64,000 bases of DNA from Amoeboaphelidium protococcarum X5 (Eukaryota > Fungi > Aphelidiomycota): assembly GCA_023515725.1 (NCBI GenBank), contig JALDTO010000251.1:558001-622000 (forward strand), written 5' to 3'. Of this stretch, positions 29,799-47,800 are shown piece after piece. Position 1 is the first letter of the stretch. Every line of letters begins with the position of its first letter. The notes below the pieces were generated by a model, which saw only the letters and a list, made by a program, of their open reading frames with translations, was not told the DNA's origin and searched no databases. Both the position numbers and the translations under genes were made by a program.

Positions 29799-29870
29799 CG
29801 CGTCATCACAGACTCGAACTGTGAACCATTTGATTAGAAGTCAAGTACGCTACCATTGCGCCAATGACGT
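29799..29870 (-). tRNA. tRNA-Arg(UCU)
   Basis: ACGTCATTGGCGCAATGGTAGCGTACTTGACTTCTAATCAAATGGTTCACAGTTCGAGTCTGTGATGACGCG folds as a cloverleaf with anticodon TCT. A1-C72 mismatch. Oligo-T terminator downstream. Confidence 0.85.
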
Positions 29871-33592: not shown

Positions 33593-33664
33593 CGCGCATG
33601 CACAGACTCGAACTGTGAACCTTCCCTTTAGGAGAGGGACTCGCTTCCATTGCGACACATGCGC
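33593..33664 (-). tRNA. tRNA-Arg(CCU)
   Basis: GCGCATGTGTCGCAATGGAAGCGAGTCCCTCTCCTAAAGGGAAGGTTCACAGTTCGAGTCTGTGCATGCGCG has a perfect acceptor stem and anticodon CCT. Confidence 0.9.
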
Positions 33665-33846
33665 CCGCGTTATTAATACTTGATCCAGGAGGACAGGCTA
33701 TATATACAATAGAAATAGAGTGGAAGCTAAATACAAAGACTAAGAGTCAAATAGAGACACCAACAGAAGTATAATAGATACAGATATGCTAATATGATGA
33801 ATACTCTATTAATACTTTTAAGTGGAAGAATTCAATGTTCATGAAC

Positions 33847-34014
33847 GGCGCGCACTTGAAACAATGTTGATCATCTAGGCCCCATAGAGTCTTCTGTTGA
33901 TACTTGATCGACGCGTGTGCTAACACAATTTGAATATTGCTCGTAGTCTAAGTGTCAACAGTTGGCCTTTGAGAGGCTTAAAAGATCAACACTATCAACT
34001 TTAAAAAGCGCGCC
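33847..34014. repeat. Long imperfect hairpin (~170 nt)
   Basis: Nested pairs GGCGCGC/GCGCGCC, TGTTGATC/GATCAACA, AGGCC/GGCCT and CTGTTGATACTT/AAGTGTCAACAG. Confidence 0.6.
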
Positions 34015-34199
34015 TCTCTCGCTAATTTCATTCCGAATAGGCAAGTACATGCAGTATATAGGCGCGCCTCTTATATCTATTAACTTCTTTCTATAAACTT
34101 GTTAGATATTGTTTTAGCCTACATACACGTATTTATATTCTCGTAGAAAAAAGATGGTATGAGCAATCTTACTGAACTTTAGTATGGAGACAAATCCTT

Positions 34200-36000
34200 T
34201 TTGCGGTAACCTCGTTTCCTTTATACTGTACATATATGACGGAAGGGGGTATTTAGTCATATGGAAGCTCCCCATTTAGATTATCAAAAAGATGAAAACA
34301 CATGTTCAGGTCAGTCGTTATATTTAATCCTGGAAAGAATTCACCTCCACCCAGGTGGCGTGACGCTGTCATACGTCAATCCACTCAAGCTTAAAAAGAT
34401 CTGTGCTTCGAATTTTCTCACGCTGAATGGCTTGAATCGCGTCCTGATGTTCCATTTGCGTTGATGCGCGGCAACTATGGTGGCTATGTTGACAACATTG
34501 CTGAGTCCTATCTAAGGCATTGTTGGGTGCAAGTTATGATGAACGTTTAGAATCGCGTCAAGGAGTACCTGGTCAATGAACTCTCGAAAGTGCCGGCTTT
34601 TCGCATCCTGAAACGCGCTAGAGTGGTGAATATTTGGATCGAGGCAATCGATAATAAGGTGCTCAGAGTCCTCGACTTGAATGATATGGTTTAATTGGTA
34701 AATATCGGCGACAGGCATCGTATCACGCAAGGATTCTGTGACTCTGTCAACAGAATCTACTCCGAGTTTTATCCTAGAGTGGCCAATCTACCTGGGACGC
34801 GTATTCTGACTGGTAGAAACGGTCACTTTTAACCTAACTGGCACAGGTGCTTGCGTCTGATGCATTTCCTTTAGTAATACAATTATGCGAACGGCCTTGT
34901 ACATTTTAACGTTGTCCCCGACGTGAAACTAAGGCCGTTCCATATCAAGTTGACGAAGGATCTAAGTCGCTCTAGCCGCCTCTTTGGTCCTACTGCACCT
35001 GAAAGCGTTGAAAGATTTCACAACATCTTGACTGTCCCTTAGTATATTTAAAATCGTGTCGAAACGACTAGATTCACGGATCTTTAAGTAGTGTCTCCAT
35101 CATGGCATGTTACCTCTCTTCTATACTGTCTGTTGTGCATATGGTTTGTCCTCAAGTCAGTGAAACTTAACACCTTCAATTAAGATGTCTACCATCTCAC
35201 TAATTCTTCCGTTGACATATTATCAGTTGCTGCTGATTAATAACTAGTTGAGAATCTAAATGTAGCGCCAATGGTATCAGACGCGACCAATTTATGGTCA
35301 GATTCATTAAGTTTCAGCCTTACTGTCTTGGTTTGGCGTTTCATTATATATCTTGACCAGCACGATGGATCTGTATCGGTGCTCGGTTCCTTTGTAAATC
35401 AGTGTCAACTGATGTTTGATATACATTCAATCGTCTTTGCCACGGACGATATCAAGATTAACACTATCGAATCACTCCTCACCTAGAAAGCTAGCAAGTA
35501 CTGTAGTATGATTCTATAATTGGAAATTCCTCTTAAGAAGTGCTGAAGTCTTTCAAAACTTTTATTGCTTGTTTCAAGGAGTGACTGTGTTCGGCTAGCT
35601 AAAGAGACTGCGTTGAGAAAACTGTAGGTAAGGCTCGATGACTTCCGCTTATACGGCAGAGTTTAGATATCTATCGTCTGCCTATGGGTGGAATGACCTT
35701 CTTTTGAAGTCTAAGAGTCTAAAAACTGATGTGCGTATCCTGATCTTGTCGGCTGATGAGCCTGATACTCTTCATAAGATGGTAAAGTTGCTTTTTACAG
35801 ACTCGACCGCGTTACACTGAGATAAAGACGTTGGATGTGTGTGAGTAGTCGTCATTTAAGAAGTGGTATTCATCTGCCGGATCTCTTCTGCCTCATCTGT
35901 CTTGGCTTTTATAGACTCTTCCTCCACTTCAGCTTGTCGTGATCCTCAGCCCGACATTATGGATATTGGCTATTTGAAGCGTGGGCCACTGTTTCCAGAA
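34200..36000 (+). pseudogene. Decayed, near full-length Fanzor1-like gene
   Basis: APHLD..HMFRSV...WLESRPDVPFA...YVDNIAESY...NVQNRVKEYL...NWHRCLRLMHFLQQY...FNVVPDVKLRPFHIKL, HDGSVSVL, RuvC-II-like LSADEPDT (35746-35769), CLIC (35889-35900) and RuvC-III-like RD/SADIMDIG across a frameshift (35938-35971). RuvC-I (DPG) not found. Confidence 0.55.
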
Positions 36001-36374: not shown

Positions 36375-37799
36375 TCATTCAATGTCCATAGTATCGTCAA
36401 GCAAATCGCCATACTCATTCATCAGCGCCGCATCCTTAACCTTCTTGTCCTCTTTAACAGACTTGACACTAGATGAATCGACACCATCACCATTCTTAAA
36501 CGACTACACATCTCGCCTGTCATCCCCCTCATCCTCAGAGTCGGAAAACTCATCATCTCTCACCACTCGTTTGTCACTATCCAAAATGGAAATCCTCTCA
36601 TCAGCATTACGTTCACGAGCCTCTGCAATCTCCTCCAACGCGTCATTGTAACTGTCGGCAACTAGTGGCTGCAACTGCACAGATGGAGCATGTGGAATGT
36701 GCCTCAAATTCTCCAGTATAATGTTCTTGGTCTTTTCCAAATATTCTCGAGTATTCAGATTGTCCATATTGTTCGACGGCACATCCAGTACAAAGTCCGG
36801 ACCAAAGTACTCAAAGTAATCATTATACGGCAGCTCTTATGGCAATTTAGTGTCAATAGCCAGACCAGTCTCATACGCCCACACTCTAGACACATTTCGT
36901 ATAGTGTATCCACCACCACCTAATAACATCACGGGAACTCCAAACTTTTTCACAAATTCTACACACTGCGAATGTCCCTTCATAGACAGATTAAAGCAGC
37001 CGAGTCTATCACCAGCCAGGGAATCAGCACCACACTGCAGTACAATAGCTGTCGGTCTATACCAGTCCATGATTGCCTGAATAACCGGCTCAAATATAGA
37101 CTTGTAAGACTGGTCATCAATACCATCTCTGAGTGGGAAATTGACAGAGTAATTCTTACCGCGACCATGTCCAATGTCGCGCAGGTCACCAGTACCAGGG
37201 AAGTACTCGCCAAACTTGTGAAAGGATGCCGTCATAACTCTGTCCGTAGTGTAGAAAGCCTCCTCCACACCGTCTCCGTGATGAATGTCAATGTCAATGT
37301 ACAAGACGCGCTAATGATACTTTAACAGCTCCAGAATAGCTAGCACAATGTCGTTCACATAACAAAAGCCACTGGCCTCATTTCGCTTGGCATGATGCAA
37401 TCCACCAGCCCAATTGATAGCCACATCACAGTCTCCCCTGTTGAGTCGCTGAGCACCTTGTATAGAACCACCAGCACTAATCGATGAAAACTCAAAAATA
37501 CCATCAAACACCGGGCAATCTTCTCCCACATTATACTTGTGCTAGTCCTTGACAAACTGATTCTAAGTCTCCGGAGTCACGCGATACAGAAAGTCAATGT
37601 ACTCGTCAGAATGGAATCTGGTCATCTCCTTCACGGTGGCCTTGCGCGGGCGTATAATATCCAGCTTCTGATAGAGACCATAGTTGAGCAGGAGCGAGTG
37701 TGTCATTCGAATACGGTGCGGCTTCATTGGATGCCACGGACCATAATGATAATTTCCCACCTCGACATCATAAAAGTATGAAACTTTGGACTTGGTCAT
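36375..37799 (-). CDS. RPD3: Class I histone deacetylase Rpd3/HDAC1
   Basis: [55 protein letters not shown] and C-terminal [10 protein letters not shown]. Confidence 0.97.
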
Positions 37800-38088
37800 T
37801 TTGTTACTGATGATTTTCTACTGTGTTTTTTCCAGAAGTATATTGCTTGAACTGATTCGCTGATGAAAGAGCTGCAGAGATGAAGACTGAGAGAAAAGCG
37901 AGCGACGCCGAACGGGAAACGGCAAACGAACATCTCAATGTAACACATTGCAAACATACTGTATTAACTCAAGTCAACTATCTCATCCTCAACATTAATC
38001 TAATCATCATCATCAATTTCTTGACTCTGATCTTCGCTGCCTTTCTACTCTTCTGCAAGTTAATTATGTTACACGTAAATTAATGACT

Positions 38089-39016
38089 TCATTATTCATC
38101 ATCTTCATCATCATTATCATCATCTGTAGAGCCGATGCTCTCGTCATCCTTAAACGCTAAATATTCACATGCTTCCTTCAAATGATACTCAATATTGCTA
38201 CTTCCCACTAATTTCCAACAATCGGGGCAACAATCGGCCTTTCTACTTCTGGCAAGCTCGTTATGAATTTAGATTAGTTCCGCTGACGGTCTCGTCGCAG
38301 GGTCGGAAGATAAAGTCAACTGCTTAATAGAATTCCGATAAATCCAATGCTCATACAAAACAATCACGCGTCCGTCAGCCTCAAACATCCACTGAAACAA
38401 ATCATAACTTTCCCCCAAATCTTTCCTCAGCAGAATACCATTCTGAGGTGAATAAAGCTGTTCAAGTGGTATCCTCTATGATTAGTTCAGAGGGACGATG
38501 TGTGCAGCCGTTAAATTTATATGATTTTGCTCTCCAGTAGCAACACAACATTTGTCTCGTCGCAGAAGTGCTTACCTCATCTTCTTCATTGAATTTTTAA
38601 GCCGCTTGACATGCCTGCCAGATGCGCAAATCCCACTACTTTTCGCCCGTGAGCGACACGAATCGTACGATGCTATTGAAAAGTCCAAAGCTTCTACAAA
38701 AATAGGTGACAGATGAATAATTAGAATACCCAAAATCAATAGAATACGTACCGTTGGATATAGACGCCGGTTTGCTTAAAAGAACAATCTTCTTTTCCAT
38801 CAATCTGTCCTACTTTTTGTACAGGCTGGTGAGCTAAGCAGTGGCCGATTCCAAAATGCACCTGGGGGCGGCTCTGACATCTGCGGGTTGTCCTTCCTCA
38901 ATAGCCTACTTTAGTCGCAGACTTGCTTCCTCCACCTTCTGTTATGCTATATTAATTTCTTGTTGAATAGCTGCAATTGCTGCCTTGGATTCATCGATTT
39001 GCTCTTGGACATTCAT
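38089..39016 (-). CDS. Coiled-coil plus HNH_2-type endonuclease domain protein (Crinkler/toxin-like); intron 38694-38751
   Basis: Heptad-rich N-terminus, then LRRDKCCVATG...TAAHIVP...SPQNGILLRKDLGESYD, a CPDC..H..C finger and an acidic tail. 289 aa after splicing. Confidence 0.75.
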
Positions 39017-39289
39017 TGTCTATCATGTAGAAAACAAAATTTAGCCATTTTTATAGCTCTTTGATTTCGATAACGCCAATCAGACTAAGTATACTGTCTG
39101 GCAGCTATATTAGCTTCTCCTACTACCGTTAATGTCTCTATAAAACTATGAAATATGTATTTATCTTTCTTTTCTTACTAAATAAATATATACCAAGTAA
39201 TGCTAATGTCTGTAAGATATCCTTGGTATTGCTAGCCAGATAGTTAAAAGGCGTTCTAATCCATTGTTTGACTTTGTCAGTCTATGAAA

Positions 39290-40445
39290 GCCACCACAAT
39301 GACCGAATTCTTTTGCCCCTTCTGCAACAAAGTCCACCAAGATTATAAAGTACAAGTTTGTCCATCATCTTACTAGTAGGTACGCGGTTAATATCAGTTC
39401 TATGCTTGTTTATAATAAAAGATCGAGAAGTGGCTTCGATGGTTGGTGAGATGGTCAAGTTAGCTCATGTACGAACGAGACTTCTAAAAGTCTCCGTGAC
39501 GCGAAATATATGGTATCCGAACTGACAGGCACATTTGATTCCGCGAGCACTGCCTGCAAAGCTTAAAGATTCTTCTGTTATATGGCTGTTTGTCAATGCG
39601 GATAATCCAGAGAAGCTAGTTATGTACTTTCCGCGTTTAGGTATGAAGGCTGGTGAGACTAAACTACAAGATTTTCAGCCATCTATGCCGTGATTTGTCA
39701 GTTGTCAATTGTTGAAGATAATAGATCAAAATCTGTCACTTGGCAACCTAGTTTAAGTGAACTGGTGTTATAATTAGATTGGATCATTGAAGAAGGCCTT
39801 ATCTTAGGATTAGATAGTGAATGTCAGATATTGATATTTAGATATATATAATTTGATACTGTGTTAAATGCAATGACACGTAGTAACACCTCTAGTTAGA
39901 AATTCCGTCAATGTTCCAATCCACAGACTGGCACTTTTCTGTAATGCAAGGCAAGGCAAGGCTTAGAGTCGGTATCTTGTACTAGTAAATTGTCTTAGGC
40001 TGCACGAAAGGATAAGAACGATTCCAAGTCTCGACAACACTTGGCATCATATGGCAAGTAAATTCCTACTACAGATTATGAACATCTTGGTGTTATTGCA
40101 TTGGATCAGACAAGTCACTATCAAGCACTGACAGTCTTCAACATAGAAGAGTGTTAGACGCGTCTGCTCCTTGCAATGATGCTGAATGGCCCATGCTATC
40201 GCTTTGGTGAGTGGATGCAGATGATCCTTGGTAGGACAGAGGTTAATGGTAACACTATAAACATTGTAGTTCCCACCACCAAGAACACACTTAGGAAAGG
40301 ATAGTCTGCCATACTCAAGATCCCCTTTGCTTGTGTGCCTCAAATTATGAAGCTGGTACCTTTCCTGCGTGATAATAATCATGATCTGATATTGTGTGAT
40401 CGTGCAGCCGACTGATTTGGGAGGCGCGAACTCTTGGTACATAAA
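39290..40445 (+). pseudogene. Tyrosine recombinase-like gene 1 (Zn finger plus N-terminal half of catalytic domain), truncated and frameshifted
   Basis: MTEFFCPFCNK...; LLLAMMLNGPCYRFGEW (R at 40200-40202)...IVVPTTKN aligns with the downstream paralog. Confidence 0.6.
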
Positions 40446-42290
40446 AGCGTATTTACGTGTCCGTTCTGCGGTAGTGCCTAATAACATGAAAAATCGCGTT
40501 ATGTACGTAACCATTTTCAAACATGCCTGCTGACCCACTGCCATTATCCGAATCGCTTGATAAGGGTGTATGTTCACTATCTGTTTTAGCGCCAGAGTGG
40601 TCCTGGTAATCACCTCCTCGTTTTGCTTGCCCGCTGCAATGCTAGACAGACATTGGTCTATCAATCTAATGATCTAGAAGCGCCATTTGTGATAATGACA
40701 CGTGAAGCTCTGGTTGATAGTGTACCTGGGAGAGTGTCCACGCGTCTTTTACGTCCTTTCCCTGTTTAATATCCACTGGCGGACCATCTACGTGCTTAAT
40801 TTGCTGCGTCCCATCGTCTCCTTTAGAATCTGTTTGGTACACAGAGTGATGCTTGCTTCATTTGTGATTAGGAAATTGCTCCGGGAGATATTCCTCAGTC
40901 CTAGCCGTAGAATGAGCGCTATTAATCATTTGCTAATGCGCAGGCTCATACTGGTAGACGCGTCTCTGATGCTGCTGAGAATAACGCCGGCGTGTCCTCT
41001 GCTGATGACAATTAGAATCGTCCTAATAGTAACTCCTAATCTCGTGGACGTAGTGCATATGGCTAGAACAGCACTCCAATACTTCAAGTAACAGCGTATT
41101 TCAGACGATTATGCCGTCGACATATACCAGGAGTATCAGCATTGGAAACCTATTTAAGGCTTTAGGGTCTGAGTGCGCGTGTTGGTGACAACTACACAAA
41201 TCGAAAGGTTACAACCTTCTTCTAGATGCTGCGTTTCCAACTTGGCCATAATCCTCGCGTATCTGCTGTGAGTAATGTCAGATCTATTGCTGCCTTCTTT
41301 TGTAACGATGACAACTTCCATCCGATGACAAATCATCTCTTGAGCTTGCCCAATTCTACCTGTTCCACCAAGGCTGCCGATTTGCGCGCTATATACCAGT
41401 ACTTTGAGACAGTTCCTATACCTCCGCTCTTTGAACGTATTTTGAGACGATGCCTACAACGCCTGCGTGCGATTGATCTCACTGGCGATCTGGTCGCCTG
41501 GCAAGAGTAGAGACCACGAATAACAAGACTCGACGAGCATTGCAGTAGAATGGCCAATATATAGACTGTCTGTAATTTACACGGCTTGGTGAATGGCTTG
41601 CTCATTAGCGTCTGCGTCCTTTCGGTAATGACGACAACTCAGCATCAGTATATATGGAATCCTCATTTGCTCCATGATGACTAAAGGTTACTGTTACCGC
41701 TCTCATGAATACCTATCAATGACTGTTGACAATATTGTGCTTGATGGAGACACCTGGAAGGCTCTAATACCATACAATAAAAACTCGTCTAGGTAAGGTC
41801 GTGTTAGAGTGCTAGTGTTTCCAAATCAGCTGCGGGTTGTAATTCAGAGATATGTCGACTGGCGTCGTGGCGTGTCGCCTAACGGTCCTCTCCTGATAAT
41901 AAATTCTTAGTTGCCTGTGCTTCCTGCTACAGATACTTGGTTAACACGCACCACCAGGAAGATTTGTATTGCTCGTCATCCCAAATTCACCGCTGCTACT
42001 CCAATGCTGTTGAGATTCCTCCAGAGCGTGTTTATATGGAACAAGTACAAATTTAGTAAGATTTCTTATGATGAGAGATGAGATGCAGCTACTGTGTCGC
42101 ATCTGTGGTAGAAGTCTGGAGACGTGGCAAGAATCCTACTCGTTTGCAGATGATCTTTATGACATTTAGACTAAACTCCGTGTCTATGGCCTTGGAATCT
42201 GGGGGGCTTATTTGATGTCGATGAATTCTTGCATAAGCTGTTGACTCGATACTTAGAGAGAATACTTGAGAATGATGGGTAAACTTAATA
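40445..42290 (+). pseudogene. Tyrosine recombinase-like gene 2 (Zn finger, core-binding domain, catalytic domain), at least two frameshifts
   Basis: FTCPFCG, core-binding-like LETYLRLQGLSARVGDNY...STCSTKAADLRAIYQYF, and catalytic ICSMMTKGYCYRSHEY...IPYNKN...IQRYVDWR...TPMLLRF...CGRSLETWQESY. Confidence 0.7.
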
Positions 42291-42337
42291 AAGTGGTAAA
42301 CATATATACATATAAAATTTAAATTTCTATTCAATTT

Positions 42338-44090
42338 TCATTCATCATCATCATCATCGTCACTTTCGAAAATCAGATTACCAATGTGATCGCGGATTGG
42401 CATCAAACTACTATATTCCAACACCTGCTCCAAGATTGCTCTGTTGAGAATCACACCAGGCTGAGCGGGCAACGCCTGCGCTTATCCAGCAAATCACTCA
42501 TTCTACTTGGAGATACGCTCGTACAATTTTTCGCCTGGCTCCATTCGAGCTTTACCCTTGAGCGCACTCTTGTATGACGAACCAGCACTGTAAATATTGG
42601 CGACTGGATCAGTCCTGCCAGCAGCCACCATTGACTTGCCTTAGGCCTAAACTCGGAACATGAGAGGAGCTAGGTATTTTGCAAATTCACCCATGACATG
42701 AGATTTGGCGGTAGCCACCGATGAGGCAGTGAATTTCAGATTTTTGCAGCAATCCATCACGTCCACCACGTCGTGTTAAATAGCAGTCGCTAGCACGAAA
42801 AACGGAGCGTACTCAAACTTGCCAACATCGACTCGGCATAGACTACCAAAACCCCAGGCCATCTCAGATTCGGCAGTGCTATGTCTTATAAAGATAATCT
42901 AATCGTCCACTCGCCTTTGCGCCAGCCGTAGGACGCGTTACTCCTCCCTTCGGAGTTTCACGCTTTCTCTCTCGCTCTCTTCGTCAGAGTCGACGGCCAG
43001 AGATTGTAATGTCTACTGTACAGGAGAAGTATGCCCAGCTGTAGATGGTTGATTTTGTGGACGCAAAGGAGTCTGTACAACCAGCAGTGAGCTTGCGGAT
43101 GGCTGATGTTACTCATCTGCCATTGATTCGACTTACTCCATCTGCCGTTATTCCTATAGCAGCTACTCAAATCCTGACTGGTCGCTGGAATCATCACTAC
43201 TTTAGAAGGTATCTTCATCAGAAGAGGACTAATCCACCTCCATAAGGCTGTGAGAATCTTCCACCTGGTCCTGTAGCTACGCTTACTGCTGCTGTTGAGT
43301 TTATTCACCGCCCTCAAGGCCTTGCGAACTAGTTTAATGTGCAGCAGTAGTATCCGCAACACCAAAATCGGAAGGCTTCCTTGCCCTTCCCCAGTTCCGC
43401 CTGTGAGTCTGGCCCTCATCATCGTCTGGATCTGGGAGGGCATCATCGATTGGATCTCTTGCCTAACCAGACGGTCTTTCCTGCTACCATGCCACGTCTA
43501 TTCCCAGCCTTTAAGCGAGCAAGCTAGTGTTGTACAGACGAGTATGATCAGCTGCAGTGGGAGGATCTAATGGTCTACCATTAAACTATGGGTAGATATT
43601 CCATACACTATCCACCCAGGCACCAGCGCGCTATTGGATAGAGGCGACTTCACTTCTGCTAAAATGCTGCAGTGGAGTGCCAATGATTTATGCCATTGTT
43701 GATTTAGAAGGATCATCCAAGAGACAGAAGATTCCAATGCGATTTAAATCGTTGCTGCCAAAAAGGTGAATTCTCCTGCGTGCCTCTGTCCTAGCCTTAT
43801 CTTTTAGGTCTAGATCTGTCCGACAGGGATGGAAATACTCTCTGAAATATGCTCTTATTCTAGACCATGAGGTGCCATTAAGAATCATTCCAGTTACCAG
43901 GGCTTAGAACTCTTGATCGCTAAACACTGCACGTTATCTATTCCGACTGTAAACATCGATGGCATTGATCCTATTGCTAACGAGGAGAATAGTTATTATC
44001 GTATTCGCGACAATAGATTATCCAGAAACCAGATCAAATAGTAGAAAAGCGTCAATGTCTTATAATTCTTTTTCTATTACAAGACATGTT
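42338..44090 (-). pseudogene. Telobox/TRF-like Myb domain protein with acidic linker and unknown C-terminal domain; one internal TGA (42494-42496), start uncertain
   Basis: RQRAVFSDQEFQALVTGMILNGTSWSRIRAYF...RTDLDLKDKART has the telobox LKDKxR signature. The frame is open for >500 codons under table 6. Confidence 0.65.
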
Positions 44091-44457
44091 AATTCTATTA
44101 TCACTTTATTAATCTACCGATAAGGAGTGTGATATGATTGATATTCATTGATTCCTAACTCTCTCTGTTACTATGAAGTCTATTTATATACACTTTTCTA
44201 TAACCTTGGTTTCTACGATTTCGTACAAACGTTTCCAAGGGAAGGCATTACTATAGCTAATACGTGTAGGTAATTGCATTCGTCAGTGCGATTGCCGGAA
44301 ATATTCGCTGTTGTCAATTCATTGCACGAGATCTACAATAAATCTTACTAATGTATATGCGACGAAATATACATTTACGGCTATACCTGTAAGTAAAGAG
44401 TAACGAAAGACGCAGTACGAATATATTTCACTACTGAGAAGAAATTATAGTTCAGAG

Positions 44458-45200
44458 TCAAGAGCTTTTATGGAGCTTTTGGATCTTAATTGCCGATATT
44501 ACTTGATAATGATAATACCAGAGATCACCAACCAATTAATCCTTCGGCCGAGCAACCACTATTAACTTTTACTTCTTCGATAAGCGCTGCGGTTTGATAT
44601 CTTTTATGACTGAATTCTTTTCACGACAGTCTTAGTAGATTGCTTCAGTCTTCTGTGCTTACAATACCATAACCCCGTGCACTACATTATGAATACTTCT
44701 CAGGTAGTATCGGCGATTTCCGGGCACTACAGCCCCAAAACGCTCAACATACCGACGGAAATTGCCTAGCTACACCGACGGATTAAGATCTATAAACACC
44801 AGAGGAGCTCCCTCATTCTCCTCTGCCGCCTATACATCTATTCTAGGTTTTTTGCCGCCGCGCTATCTCTTTGGCAAGTCACGCTGCGGACGGCTTTTGA
44901 AGGAGGGTCCCTTGACTTCTTGTCCGAGGACCTTTTTGACCAGAAGTGCTCTGCTTTTTAGCTCTTTGAGTTTACTATCTACCACGAATTTGATCAATAA
45001 TAAATTAGATACTTTATCGAGAATATAGCATTACATTCGCGTTAGATGTGATCGCGTCGCTGTCGTCCTCGGAGTCTTCTACAAGCGTTTACTAAGAGGT
45101 CTGTGCGCCAAGAGGAATTACGACTGCAGGAGTGGACAGATTCTGCTTCTGGACTACTTCTCTTATATCAGTAAAATGAGGGCAAGAGACTAAGTGATAA
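44458..45200 (-). CDS. Hypothetical basic protein, probably spliced; 5' end unresolved
   Basis: Open frame ...SKLKELKSRALLVKKVLGQEVKGPSFK...PLVFIDLNPSVQLGNFRRYVERFG...HKSS*. No family recognised. Confidence 0.35.
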
Positions 45201-45563
45201 TCTCCCTTTAATAATATTGATCAAAAACTTCTAAACAGAAAAAGCGGCGTTACTTAACGTTCCAGCCCCTTGATTACATGATTTACCCAAGAGCCAAGAC
45301 TTGATAGTTTGGTTTGATTACGACATCTACGGTGTCCGTTGTTGATATTAATTCAGACGTTATTGTAGAGCAAGTAGAAAGAGATATAAGCCAATTACTA
45401 TTTATTTTATTCCTTTCATCGCGAGATAAAAATAATTCATTCGATATTCCCAAATTTATTGTTAGTTGATGCCATCACTTCAGGTTTTGTCAACCATCGT
45501 CTAGCGTACAACCAGATTGTTACTTTGCCGAGACACTATAGATTTGGACTACCAAAAAAAGTA

Positions 45564-45635
45564 CGACCGAGGCCGGACTTGAACCGACAACCTTAAGCTC
45601 CGAAGACTTACGCGCTTCGATTGCGCCACTCGGCA
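45564..45635 (-). tRNA. tRNA-Arg(UCG), possibly degenerate
   Basis: TGCCGAGTGGCGCAATCGAAGCGCGTAAGTCTTCGGAGCTTAAGGTTGTCGGTTCAAGTCCGGCCTCGGTCG has anticodon TCG, a 1-72 mismatch and D-loop GG changed to CG. Followed by T7. Confidence 0.75.
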
Positions 45636-46669
45636 AGTCAAAACCACAAAAATTTTTCTCACAGCCATACTATATACTCAGCGAGGAGTGTACTTGTTAC
45701 GTAAAATAGAGGCGAAAGGTGCAACCGGTTTAAGCACCTCATTTACGCCCATTGTAGGCCTTCTTGGAATAGCACACGCGCATTGCGGTATTACCCACAA
45801 ATTTTGTCGTGATTGTCCCGCGCGGTCCATGCACTCTCATGAGTGTTTAGGCACCTTTGATCACTAAGGATACTATAAACGGTACACTAGACTTTATTCA
45901 CCCTTTCGGTCCTATTAAGGAACGGATCGATTGCTCTAGCTTTAGAAAAGTTTAGTGGGCGAGTGTCAAAGCTGTGTCCTATTGATAGCTGCACTGACCT
46001 TCTTGCCTTTCATCAACTAGAGGACTGGTTTACCACTCCATGGAAATTTAGGAAATTATCATTGATTAACTAGAGGATGCTTACGTGTATTCTGTCAAAA
46101 TGATCGCGATAGACGACTAGAGCAACTCAACTCAACGACACGATAGTCGAGTTTTGTTGTACGGTAAGCGCAGCTTGTTTGTGCGCCTCATCATTAATTT
46201 TATCGGTGGAAAGAAGCTGTTTTAAAAAGCTGTAATAGAATACTCATAAAGTACAAGTGTGATTTTGTCATGGTTTAGTAGTGAGAGTTGGGAACGTGTG
46301 ATAAATGGGTCAATGGTCATGGGGGATTAGGTTGAATAATATCGTGTCAATTGAATACAGTAGGCGGAGAATTTAATCACATCTATCCTCACAGCATTCG
46401 TGCGAAAAGTATTTTGTGTCGACAAAGTCTAATCGGTTACTACAGTATACTATAAATATTCATCCAAAGCTCTATCCTGGCGAATCACTTTGTGTTCTCG
46501 TTGCTTGAGCAAACACTCGATTTAATTGAACCATTATGGTGTATTGAGAACTGGGTTATTAACACTACAAATACAGGTTCTGGCAAGAACTACTAGAAAA
46601 TATTAAATAAAATATGCTAGCTTGGTGTTGCAAAATTAATGAAATTCTGAATTGACTTGACACATAGTG

Positions 46670-47800
46670 CCTCTAAAGATAAATTTGCTCCATACACAAG
46701 ATTATAAACAAACTTGAGTTGAACTGCTAAACCATAATTGTCAAAGATTGACAACGTGAATAGAATTTACAGAGAAGATTTATTTAATTTCTGCTATGAG
46801 ATGTGGAGATTGAATGCTTGATGGAAATGCCATGCTTAAGCTGTATTGGTACAAGTTTTTTGAATCTAATCACGATATCCATAGTGTCCCCCATTTGAAT
46901 TTAACTACTATAGCTCATATCTTTCAATCTGCTGCCATCTTAACTGATTTGCAATCGCAATTCGATTAGGCGCCGGGGGCCAAAAGGTTGAGGAAGGAAA
47001 TTAGCTGCATAGTGTCGTAAAACAGCTGTGGATCAATGCTCGTGGTGCTAGAGTTCCTTTTGCGCGTCTGCCTGCTTGATACAACGCTTATGTCCTTCAT
47101 TTATGTGCCAATAAGATCTAAGTGATTAATATTTAGTTAAATTCTAATCCAAAAAATCGTTCAATAAGATTATTTTAAGCATGTAATCCGGAAAGTTCAT
47201 ATCTCATAAAGTTGATTATGTCAAGTTTACAAAGATCGACGCCTGTTAGATCCTCGACTCTAATCAGCTGATCTAAGGCATGTTTAACTCCTTGGACCTG
47301 CTGTTGATGTTTTCATTTGATAACAATAATCTATCGGCAAAAATGAAGAAGAAGAGCAATGCAGTGTTATCCTCCGAGTAAATGCAAGATCTGCAGGCTG
47401 TTTATGAGAGAATCTTTAACGCGTGCATGCTAATCAAAAAGGTTTCACTGGTCTCCTCAAAGATAACAGAGAATTGGAATGAGTATACGCGTCTGTTGTA
47501 TACAATCTAGCAGTATTTTTTTCATCAGAATAGCCTTCAACTATTCAATATAGTTCCTACATTGAAATTGCAGCCATTCTACATCACTTTGAATGCAATT
47601 AATGCTATGAAGTCTAGAATATTTGGTGAGACGTAGAGACTAAAGTACTTCCAACTTTAAAACCGCATTCAAGTATGACTAGAGTTTCAAGTATAAAGAA
47701 TTCTATACTGACTTGTATTCTGTTCGCATTTCTTACGAATCTGGTTTCAGAGAAGAGTTATAAAAGCGCAAGCCACAGATCTAGGCGCCTGGAGTCTAAT
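46670..47800 (+). pseudogene. Fanzor1-like relic paralogous to 34200-36000; no recognisable RuvC
   Basis: VPHLNLTTIAHIFQSAAI...WINARGARVPFA...YNAYV...NWNEYTRLLYTIQQY...FNIVPTLKLQPFYITL...SRIFG...FYTDLYSVRISYE aligns motif by motif with the 34-kb copy. Confidence 0.55.

Follow-up and report, generated by a model that had tools for sequence, protein, structure and literature searches.

What kind of element can have left two tyrosine-recombinase-like genes in a row, facing a gene with a Myb-like domain, beside a tRNA gene of an aphelid? The locus lies in a stretch of 64,000 nucleotides from Amoeboaphelidium protococcarum X5 (contig JALDTO010000251.1, positions 558,001 to 622,000 of the forward strand), which we call the window and in whose coordinates all positions are given. 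A preliminary description, made from the sequence alone, had proposed an undescribed tyrosine recombinase (YR) transposon, or an integrated virus-like element, with two tandem recombinases as its design. Our reading, held with moderate confidence, is that two lineages of Crypton-like DNA transposons have decayed here into a composite, and that each lineage probably had one recombinase gene. That the two genes now stand in tandem is probably accidental and, on our best reading, at least one of the Crypton-like elements carried a convergent gene for a telobox-like Myb protein as its partner. The intact members of the recombinase family would themselves be Crypton-like DNA transposons.

Two broken recombinase genes and their family

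The window is read here in genetic code 6 (TAA/TAG = Gln), as host genes, for example that of a histone deacetylase (HDAC, 36375-37934), are fully open only in that code; the standard code and a TAG-only code, in which they are not, were ruled out. The genes of the locus use TAA and TAG for Gln as freely as host genes do, which indicates that they have long resided in a host with code 6. Read in this way, the two genes on the forward strand (Table 1) both have the FxCPFC motif first described for them, FFCPFC in gene 1 (CPFC at 39314) and FTCPFC in gene 2 (CPFC at 40458). The MMxxGxCYRxxE and IxxxKN blocks are likewise common to both, with 17/54 residues identical between gene 1 and the ortholog of gene 2 (E 3e-8).

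Gene 2 is damaged by one in-frame TGA at 40413, roughly where its relatives have Trp, and by three frame breaks that a frameshift-aware alignment places near 41485, 41600-41655 and 42076; the breaks near 41485 and 42076 can also be read in P0001, its counterpart in another strain. Against a family profile built from nine metagenome relatives it matches in four pieces (E 6.3e-12, 0.071, 1.7e-35 and 4.5e-9), values that are not fully independent because the relatives were found with P0002, a protein predicted from this locus, as the query. The catalytic residues do stand where they had been placed (R 41698, K 41779, TPMLLR 42004-42013, CGRS 42110, Y 42137), but the frame of the Tyr differs from that of the Arg and Lys, and the active-site series R, K, M, R, R, Y is spread over broken frames. 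A complete recombinase cannot come from this copy unless by splicing or frameshifting, neither of which has been demonstrated. In the ESM Atlas, residues 165-481 of P0001 lie near Phage_integrase clusters (0.96, 0.95), behind two clusters that have no family.

Gene 1 is still less complete in its match to the profile, which covers profile positions 343-470 only (39963-40316, E 1.4e-13): the first catalytic Arg and the Lys are kept, the second Arg and the Tyr are missing, and past the Lys the gene continues in frame into the probable ATG of gene 2. Its CPFC segment resembles the family finger (z 5.0); downstream of it, about 650 bases with no significant family match precede the recombinase-like part, which is in another frame. 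Where, then, do the genes meet? The preliminary description had continued gene 1 as QPTDLGGANSWYIK and joined it to gene 2 near 40445. That continuation is unsupported (shuffle p=0.065, with p=0.55 and 0.47 for neighboring readings; seven shuffle tests of junction readings were made altogether), and a reading in frame +1 up to the helix of the second Arg was ruled out (p=0.47). Since 40347-40457 scores as the N-terminus of gene 2 against six relatives (p=0.0025), the join lies nearer 40320-40346 than 40445.

The two genes have no similarity as DNA and their products are 27% identical over the aligned catalytic region, which is similar to the 21-30% identity of either to the metagenome proteins; judged by their sequences, they are not a recent duplication. 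A tree of family members has long branches and places neither gene.

To what family do they belong? P0002 as a query against 1.84 billion representatives gave 12 matches, three of them aphelid proteins and eight from metagenomes (P0005, P0007-P0013), the remaining one, P0004, being dropped as a low-complexity repeat. Five of the eight metagenome relatives are full-length (827-930 aa) and consist of one protein each, with an N-terminal CCHC-type finger (C-x2-C...H-x4-C), one tyrosine-recombinase domain and a C-terminal Ulp1 peptidase. The peptidase His, Asp and Cys are present in all eight alignment rows that reach them, and Peptidase_C48 is matched by six of nine rows (Ulp1 E 3.6e-10). An AlphaFold model of the full-length relative P0008 (mean predicted local distance difference test score, pLDDT, 67) predicts both a core-binding and a catalytic domain of the tyrosine-recombinase fold, bearing out the suspected fold: residues 233-577 resemble XerH, XerA and Cre (Z 12.2-13.9), and against Cre the root-mean-square deviation is high over both domains and 3.6 over 177 residues for the catalytic domain. 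Residues 711-893 resemble SENP/Ulp1 (Z up to 17.9). The window genes are tied to this folded relative through the family profile, by the piece with E 1.7e-35 in gene 2 and by the single match of gene 1. By motif order the family active site is R-K-x-R-R-Y, with the first catalytic Arg in 7/7 spanning rows and the K, second R and Y in 9/9. Sequence searches of Pfam, PHROGs, NCBIfam and PDB gave no recombinase match for the window genes or the family, and no Pfam model of Crypton, Starship or integrase proteins matches it. The earlier suggestion of an undescribed YR element thus stands to the extent that these are mobile-element YR-like genes for which the libraries hold no model; for the viral link it offered as an alternative no evidence was found, as discussed below. 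We use "undescribed" relative to the searchable literature, outside which lie Repbase entries and subscription papers; no open paper was found that joins aphelids with tyrosine-recombinase transposons, or a tyrosine recombinase with a SUMO protease in a eukaryotic transposon.

In a second A. protococcarum strain the locus is represented by MP228_011749, MP228_011748 and MP228_011747, which have consecutive tags on one contig and the same order of gene 1, gene 2 and Myb gene; the first is P0003, 97% identical to gene 1, and the second is P0001, 94% identical to gene 2. Proteins matching the window letter for letter are MIR68_010803 (P0002) and MIR68_010804 (P0014). These public models, and P0015 as well, splice around the breaks, P0002 joining gene 1 to gene 2, and P0014 and P0015 fusing part of the fourth open reading frame (ORF4) to the Myb gene with loss of part of the Myb domain; all three models are probably annotation artifacts.

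Table 1. Features of the recombinase/Myb locus, in window coordinates.
Feature	Position	Strand	Basis or remark
Gene 1, 5' part	39299..39962	+	ATG, CPFC finger-like motif 39314, then stops and frame changes
Gene 1, recombinase-like part	39963..40346	+	Box-I Arg 40200, Lys 40281; ends before second Arg and Tyr
Gene 2, finger-recombinase family pseudogene without Ulp1 domain	40347..42244	+	Profile, frameshift-aware alignment, ortholog P0001
Convergent Myb-like gene; telobox-like domain at ~43775-43940, then an acidic middle and a conserved C-terminal region	42338..44279	-	PDB matches, P0014-P0016
ORF4, basic protein, 338 codons	44458..45474	-	Open frame; no Pfam match; candidate element member only
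tRNA-Arg(TCG), intact, T-run terminator	45563-45636	-	Neighbor, not demonstrated target

The convergent Myb-like gene and ORF4

Both ORFs that had been noted on the opposite strand are present, ORF4 at the length given in Table 1 and the other as a 676-codon open frame (42494-44524, minus strand), for which a telobox Myb domain is probable although the PDB matches are weak. Six of the eight PDB matches to the residues RQRAVFSDQEF...RTDLDLKDKAR are to telobox Myb domains of the TRF/TBF1 kind, each with E 0.15-0.36. Pfam gives no match to the domain, and the fold model of the ORF failed (mean pLDDT 34, no Foldseek match; about 50 for the domain itself, with three helices), so the telobox-like assignment is likely rather than proven. 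None of 100 shuffles matched the telobox pattern, a result of little weight as the pattern was written after the sequence had been seen. The gene ends at an in-frame TGA (42494) that removes the last ~50 codons and through which P0015 (94% identical, from the other strain) and P0016 (50%, from another contig) read. Among the best 7,993 candidates scored, its only homologs were P0014, P0015 and P0016, all of this species, and the ESM Atlas gave no usable match for its C-terminal region.

Before the Myb domain lies an AT-rich insert or candidate intron of ~250 bases (~43971-44226, GC 0.30), which has candidate GT-AG joins and could be spliced in frame from a candidate ATG at 44279. At 43970 an X5 contig has a loose end whose letters, in a manual translation that assumes adjacency, read AFP-x3-L-x-EI directly into the Myb frame; this peptide matches the one upstream of the insert, which suggests that the insert is secondary. 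Immediately upstream of the Myb gene, the window has a strain-specific insertion of 114 bases (44263-44376), in place of which runs X5, X6 and X8 have three letters; several other contigs cover the stretch next to it (44377-44504).

Origin of the locus

The sequencing runs contain one contig that bears directly on the history of the locus. Record 8 of run X5, a contig of 2,815 bases, aligns with gene 1 over 40007-40309, where 42 of 303 positions differ. Beyond this come 1,430 letters without alignment, followed by matches to two stretches of the Myb gene, 42348-42477 and 42695-43032. Past the gene 1 match point the tail of family members takes 1,149-1,326 bases, whereas a gene 1 tail (no fewer than 320 bases up to the Tyr) together with gene 2 (1,900) would need at least 2,200. 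There is therefore room in record 8 for one complete recombinase-peptidase tail and not for two recombinases. Record 8 has a depth of 144.7, where the other X5 records listed have 9-15; it may be present in many copies or come from a more abundant carrier, but contig depth is not a measure of copy number.

From this we would reconstruct an original unit of about 4.5 kb in which a gene-1-type recombinase, probably with the peptidase, faced the Myb gene; a gene-2-type recombinase would have taken the place of the 3' half of this unit, either by recombination or by an insertion and a subsequent deletion. Given the action of tyrosine recombinases and the model proposed for Cryptons, intact elements would leave their site as circles and insert again at short shared sequences. 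The peptidase may aid the element by stripping SUMO-type marks, and the Myb protein could be a DNA-binding helper that guides the recombinase, as has been hypothesized for the MYB/SANT protein of Starships. A more specific proposal, which we regard as possible yet doubtful, is an undescribed group of ~4.5 kb eukaryotic YR transposons, in which a finger-recombinase-Ulp1 protein with a His-less R-K-x-R-R-Y site faces a telobox-Myb recombination guide or regulator, a parallel to the Starship captain and MYB that would have been assembled independently. Under this proposal a recombinase gene of 2.7 kb and a partner of 1.7 kb would fit three of the metagenome contigs (4,522-4,595 bases).

As signs of mobility, a paralog of the Myb gene stands on another contig, and relatives of the gene 2 N-terminal domain occur at two other annotated loci per strain. 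The recombinase genes are at single-haplotype depth in X1 (90, against 184 for the HDAC contig) and X8 (47 against 88), hence the other haplotype is without them or is less than 80% alike there. Contigs of run X6, which looks RNA-like (a poly-T end, and a CT..AC joint in a neighboring gene), cover 40411-41638 without gaps, 41689-42306 and 42651-43792; since genes cannot be ranked by contig depth, we do not count them as proof of expression.

Several observations weigh against a composite of two Crypton-like elements. No terminal inverted or direct repeats and no target duplication were found at the locus, the candidate end zones, whose limits are provisional, sharing only repeats of chance length (7-9 bp) where Cryptons have terminal direct repeats of 5-6 bp, and no empty-site joint was among the 15/30 joints listed; transposition is accordingly not shown. 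Across the family the first catalytic His is present in 0/9 rows and the His/Trp site is R in 8/9 and H in 1/9, sites that were assigned by motif order, and catalytic activity is for that reason only presumptive. Gene 2 itself has no Ulp1 domain, and the 1,430 letters of record 8, whose content was judged by length, could be other than a recombinase-peptidase tail. The DNA between gene 1 and the probable ATG of gene 2 has no promoter or end sequence such as a simple insertion would leave, and our reading therefore needs a further deletion; loss of DNA from within what was once a tandem pair would account for this equally well. Finally, that both strains have this arrangement tells us only that it is older than their split.

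That last pair of points leads to the design first proposed for the locus, a genuine element with gene 1, gene 2 and the convergent Myb gene, laid out like RIT or Tn554, which suffered one deletion and then decayed. The direct run of gene 1 into the probable start of gene 2 speaks for it, as do the constancy of gene order in the two strains (MP228_011747-011749) and a 27% identity that is deep divergence of the kind expected of subfunctionalized partners. We nevertheless consider it unlikely and no longer take two tandem recombinases as the design of the element: both genes are broken, the distance from a gene-1 relative to the Myb gene in record 8 is too short for two genes, and the full-length relatives have a single recombinase domain and contigs of 2.9-5.7 kb (1.2-5.7 kb for the longest contigs of all eight metagenome relatives) that leave little room for another. 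Nor were family relatives found in bacterial or archaeal genome contigs, plasmids or phages, and scans of metagenome contigs and prokaryote genomes for neighboring DNA gave no confirmed loci. Could the Myb gene and ORF4 instead be host or long-domesticated genes, beside which two unrelated recombinase remnants landed in a region rich in tRNA genes and prone to insertions? A diverged Myb copy lies on an X1 contig that also joins 44098-44241 and the flank near 47106, like a rearranged homeolog and as a resident host gene might, which is a further point against a composite of elements; ORF4 is near two-copy depth in X8 (77-88 against 47), and other decayed-looking genes stand beside the tRNAs of the window. 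Yet the Myb gene is at single-copy depth in X8, with no second homolog from that strain, its three homologs among the best 7,993 candidates are all from this species, and record 8 physically joins it to a gene-1 relative, all of which makes this explanation quite improbable in our view.

Least probable of all, we think, is the remnant of an integrated virus or Polinton-like element with the recombinase as its integrase. In its favor, the relatives have long open frames free of interruptions, and large DNA viruses have genes for tyrosine recombinases as well as for proteases of the Ulp1 type, viral examples of which are among the structural matches. Those viral structures, however, are 8-28% identical and lack the fused architecture, four scans of viral contigs gave no confirmed relative, and the genes use TAA/TAG for Gln as host genes do. 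No capsid, packaging ATPase or polymerase was recognized by Pfam or PHROGs in the ORFs of the locus, in agreement with the absence of capsid and polB originally reported. We thus return to a decayed composite of two Crypton-like lineages as the reading to be preferred.

As for its limits, the preliminary description had set the locus against the 3' end of a tRNA-Arg. The gene does adjoin it but is intact; a search of the window for its 3' end, with up to 3 mismatches allowed, found the tRNA and nothing else, and self-BLAST was negative. The tRNA is consequently not shown to be a boundary or attachment (att) site. Three intact tRNA-Arg genes, all on the minus strand, lie within 16 kb: TCT (29799-29870), CCT (33593-33664) and the TCG gene of Table 1. 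Just upstream of two of these tRNAs (33771-33925 and ~45766-45991) high summed depth and many loose ends suggest short dispersed repeats. Two diverged paralogous ORFs on the forward strand, 34296-35156 and 47106-47675 (21-24% identical, E 1e-8), each lie 0.6-1.5 kb upstream of a tRNA-Arg gene and share FN(V/I)VP-x2-KL-x-PF-x-I-x-L, a motif that we take to resemble the N-terminal half of eukaryotic TnpB/Fanzor1; neither has a Pfam or PDB match. On its left the locus adjoins a gene for a coiled-coil and HNH_2 endonuclease protein (38089-39016, minus strand, E 8e-10), with a 58-base intron-like joint at 38693-38752 in run X6. At 33900-36000 and elsewhere, the contigs of run X1 fall into two sets of comparable depth, of which one agrees exactly with the window and the other differs by ~12%, which is consistent with two diverged subgenomes.

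Comparison with known systems

The window copy is dead and matters only as a pointer; it is the family, and its possible Myb partner, that are worth following. If mobile, the family is a deeply diverged eukaryotic tyrosine-recombinase lineage missed by Pfam, PHROGs and NCBIfam, and its natural intact members (P0005, P0008-P0010 and P0012) are open to direct testing.

Eukaryotic YR elements usually have a single YR, and tandem YRs are typical of bacterial RIT and Tn554 elements; the canonical catalytic set of tyrosine recombinases is R-K-H-R-H/W-Y. The likeness of the locus to RIT and Tn554, two recombinase genes in a row, is superficial: neither gene here is whole, prokaryotic relatives were not found and the tandem layout is unseen elsewhere. 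The Myb-like protein shares with TRF/TBF1 the W-x2-I...RT-x2-D-L-K-D-K-A-R motif and finds in them its best, individually weak, PDB sequence matches, but its Myb domain is N-terminal.

Starships resemble the locus in having a recombinase at one end and an opposite-strand Myb gene at the other; their DUF3435 captain (PMC12256816, PMC11162782) is accompanied by an opposite-sense MYB/SANT gene at the far edge, and Starship recombinases are described as absent outside Dikarya. The role of MYB/SANT is hypothesized there by analogy with Harbinger (PMC12256816). In contrast, the locus here is ~5 kb rather than hundreds and has no cargo, and no family member matches DUF3435, or the GCR1_C and DUF3504 of Cryptons (Pfam, E up to 1 or 10).

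It is with Cryptons that the family has most in common: a small element with a tyrosine recombinase, a C48/Ulp1 peptidase encoded with the recombinase, and a eukaryotic host near fungi. As originally noted, a reverse transcriptase is absent, with no match in Pfam/PHROGs scans of the ORFs at 39-48 kb, where the reverse transcriptase/RNase H gene of DIRS elements is also missing. The family differs from Cryptons in its CCHC-type finger, the missing first His, the Arg at the His/Trp site and the convergent telobox-like Myb gene. Crypton proteins were not among our matches, and the family is set beside Cryptons by description. In CryptonF-2_PS and its relatives a C48 peptidase is encoded besides the recombinase, and some CryptonS elements carry C48 as an extra protein (Kojima and Jurka 2011; PMC3212892). 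The Crypton transposition mechanism is described as not demonstrated experimentally (PMC13565253). If the family is mobile, a system this compact, in which a single protein combines an unusual active site with a SUMO-type peptidase and perhaps has a Myb partner, would thus be a useful test case.

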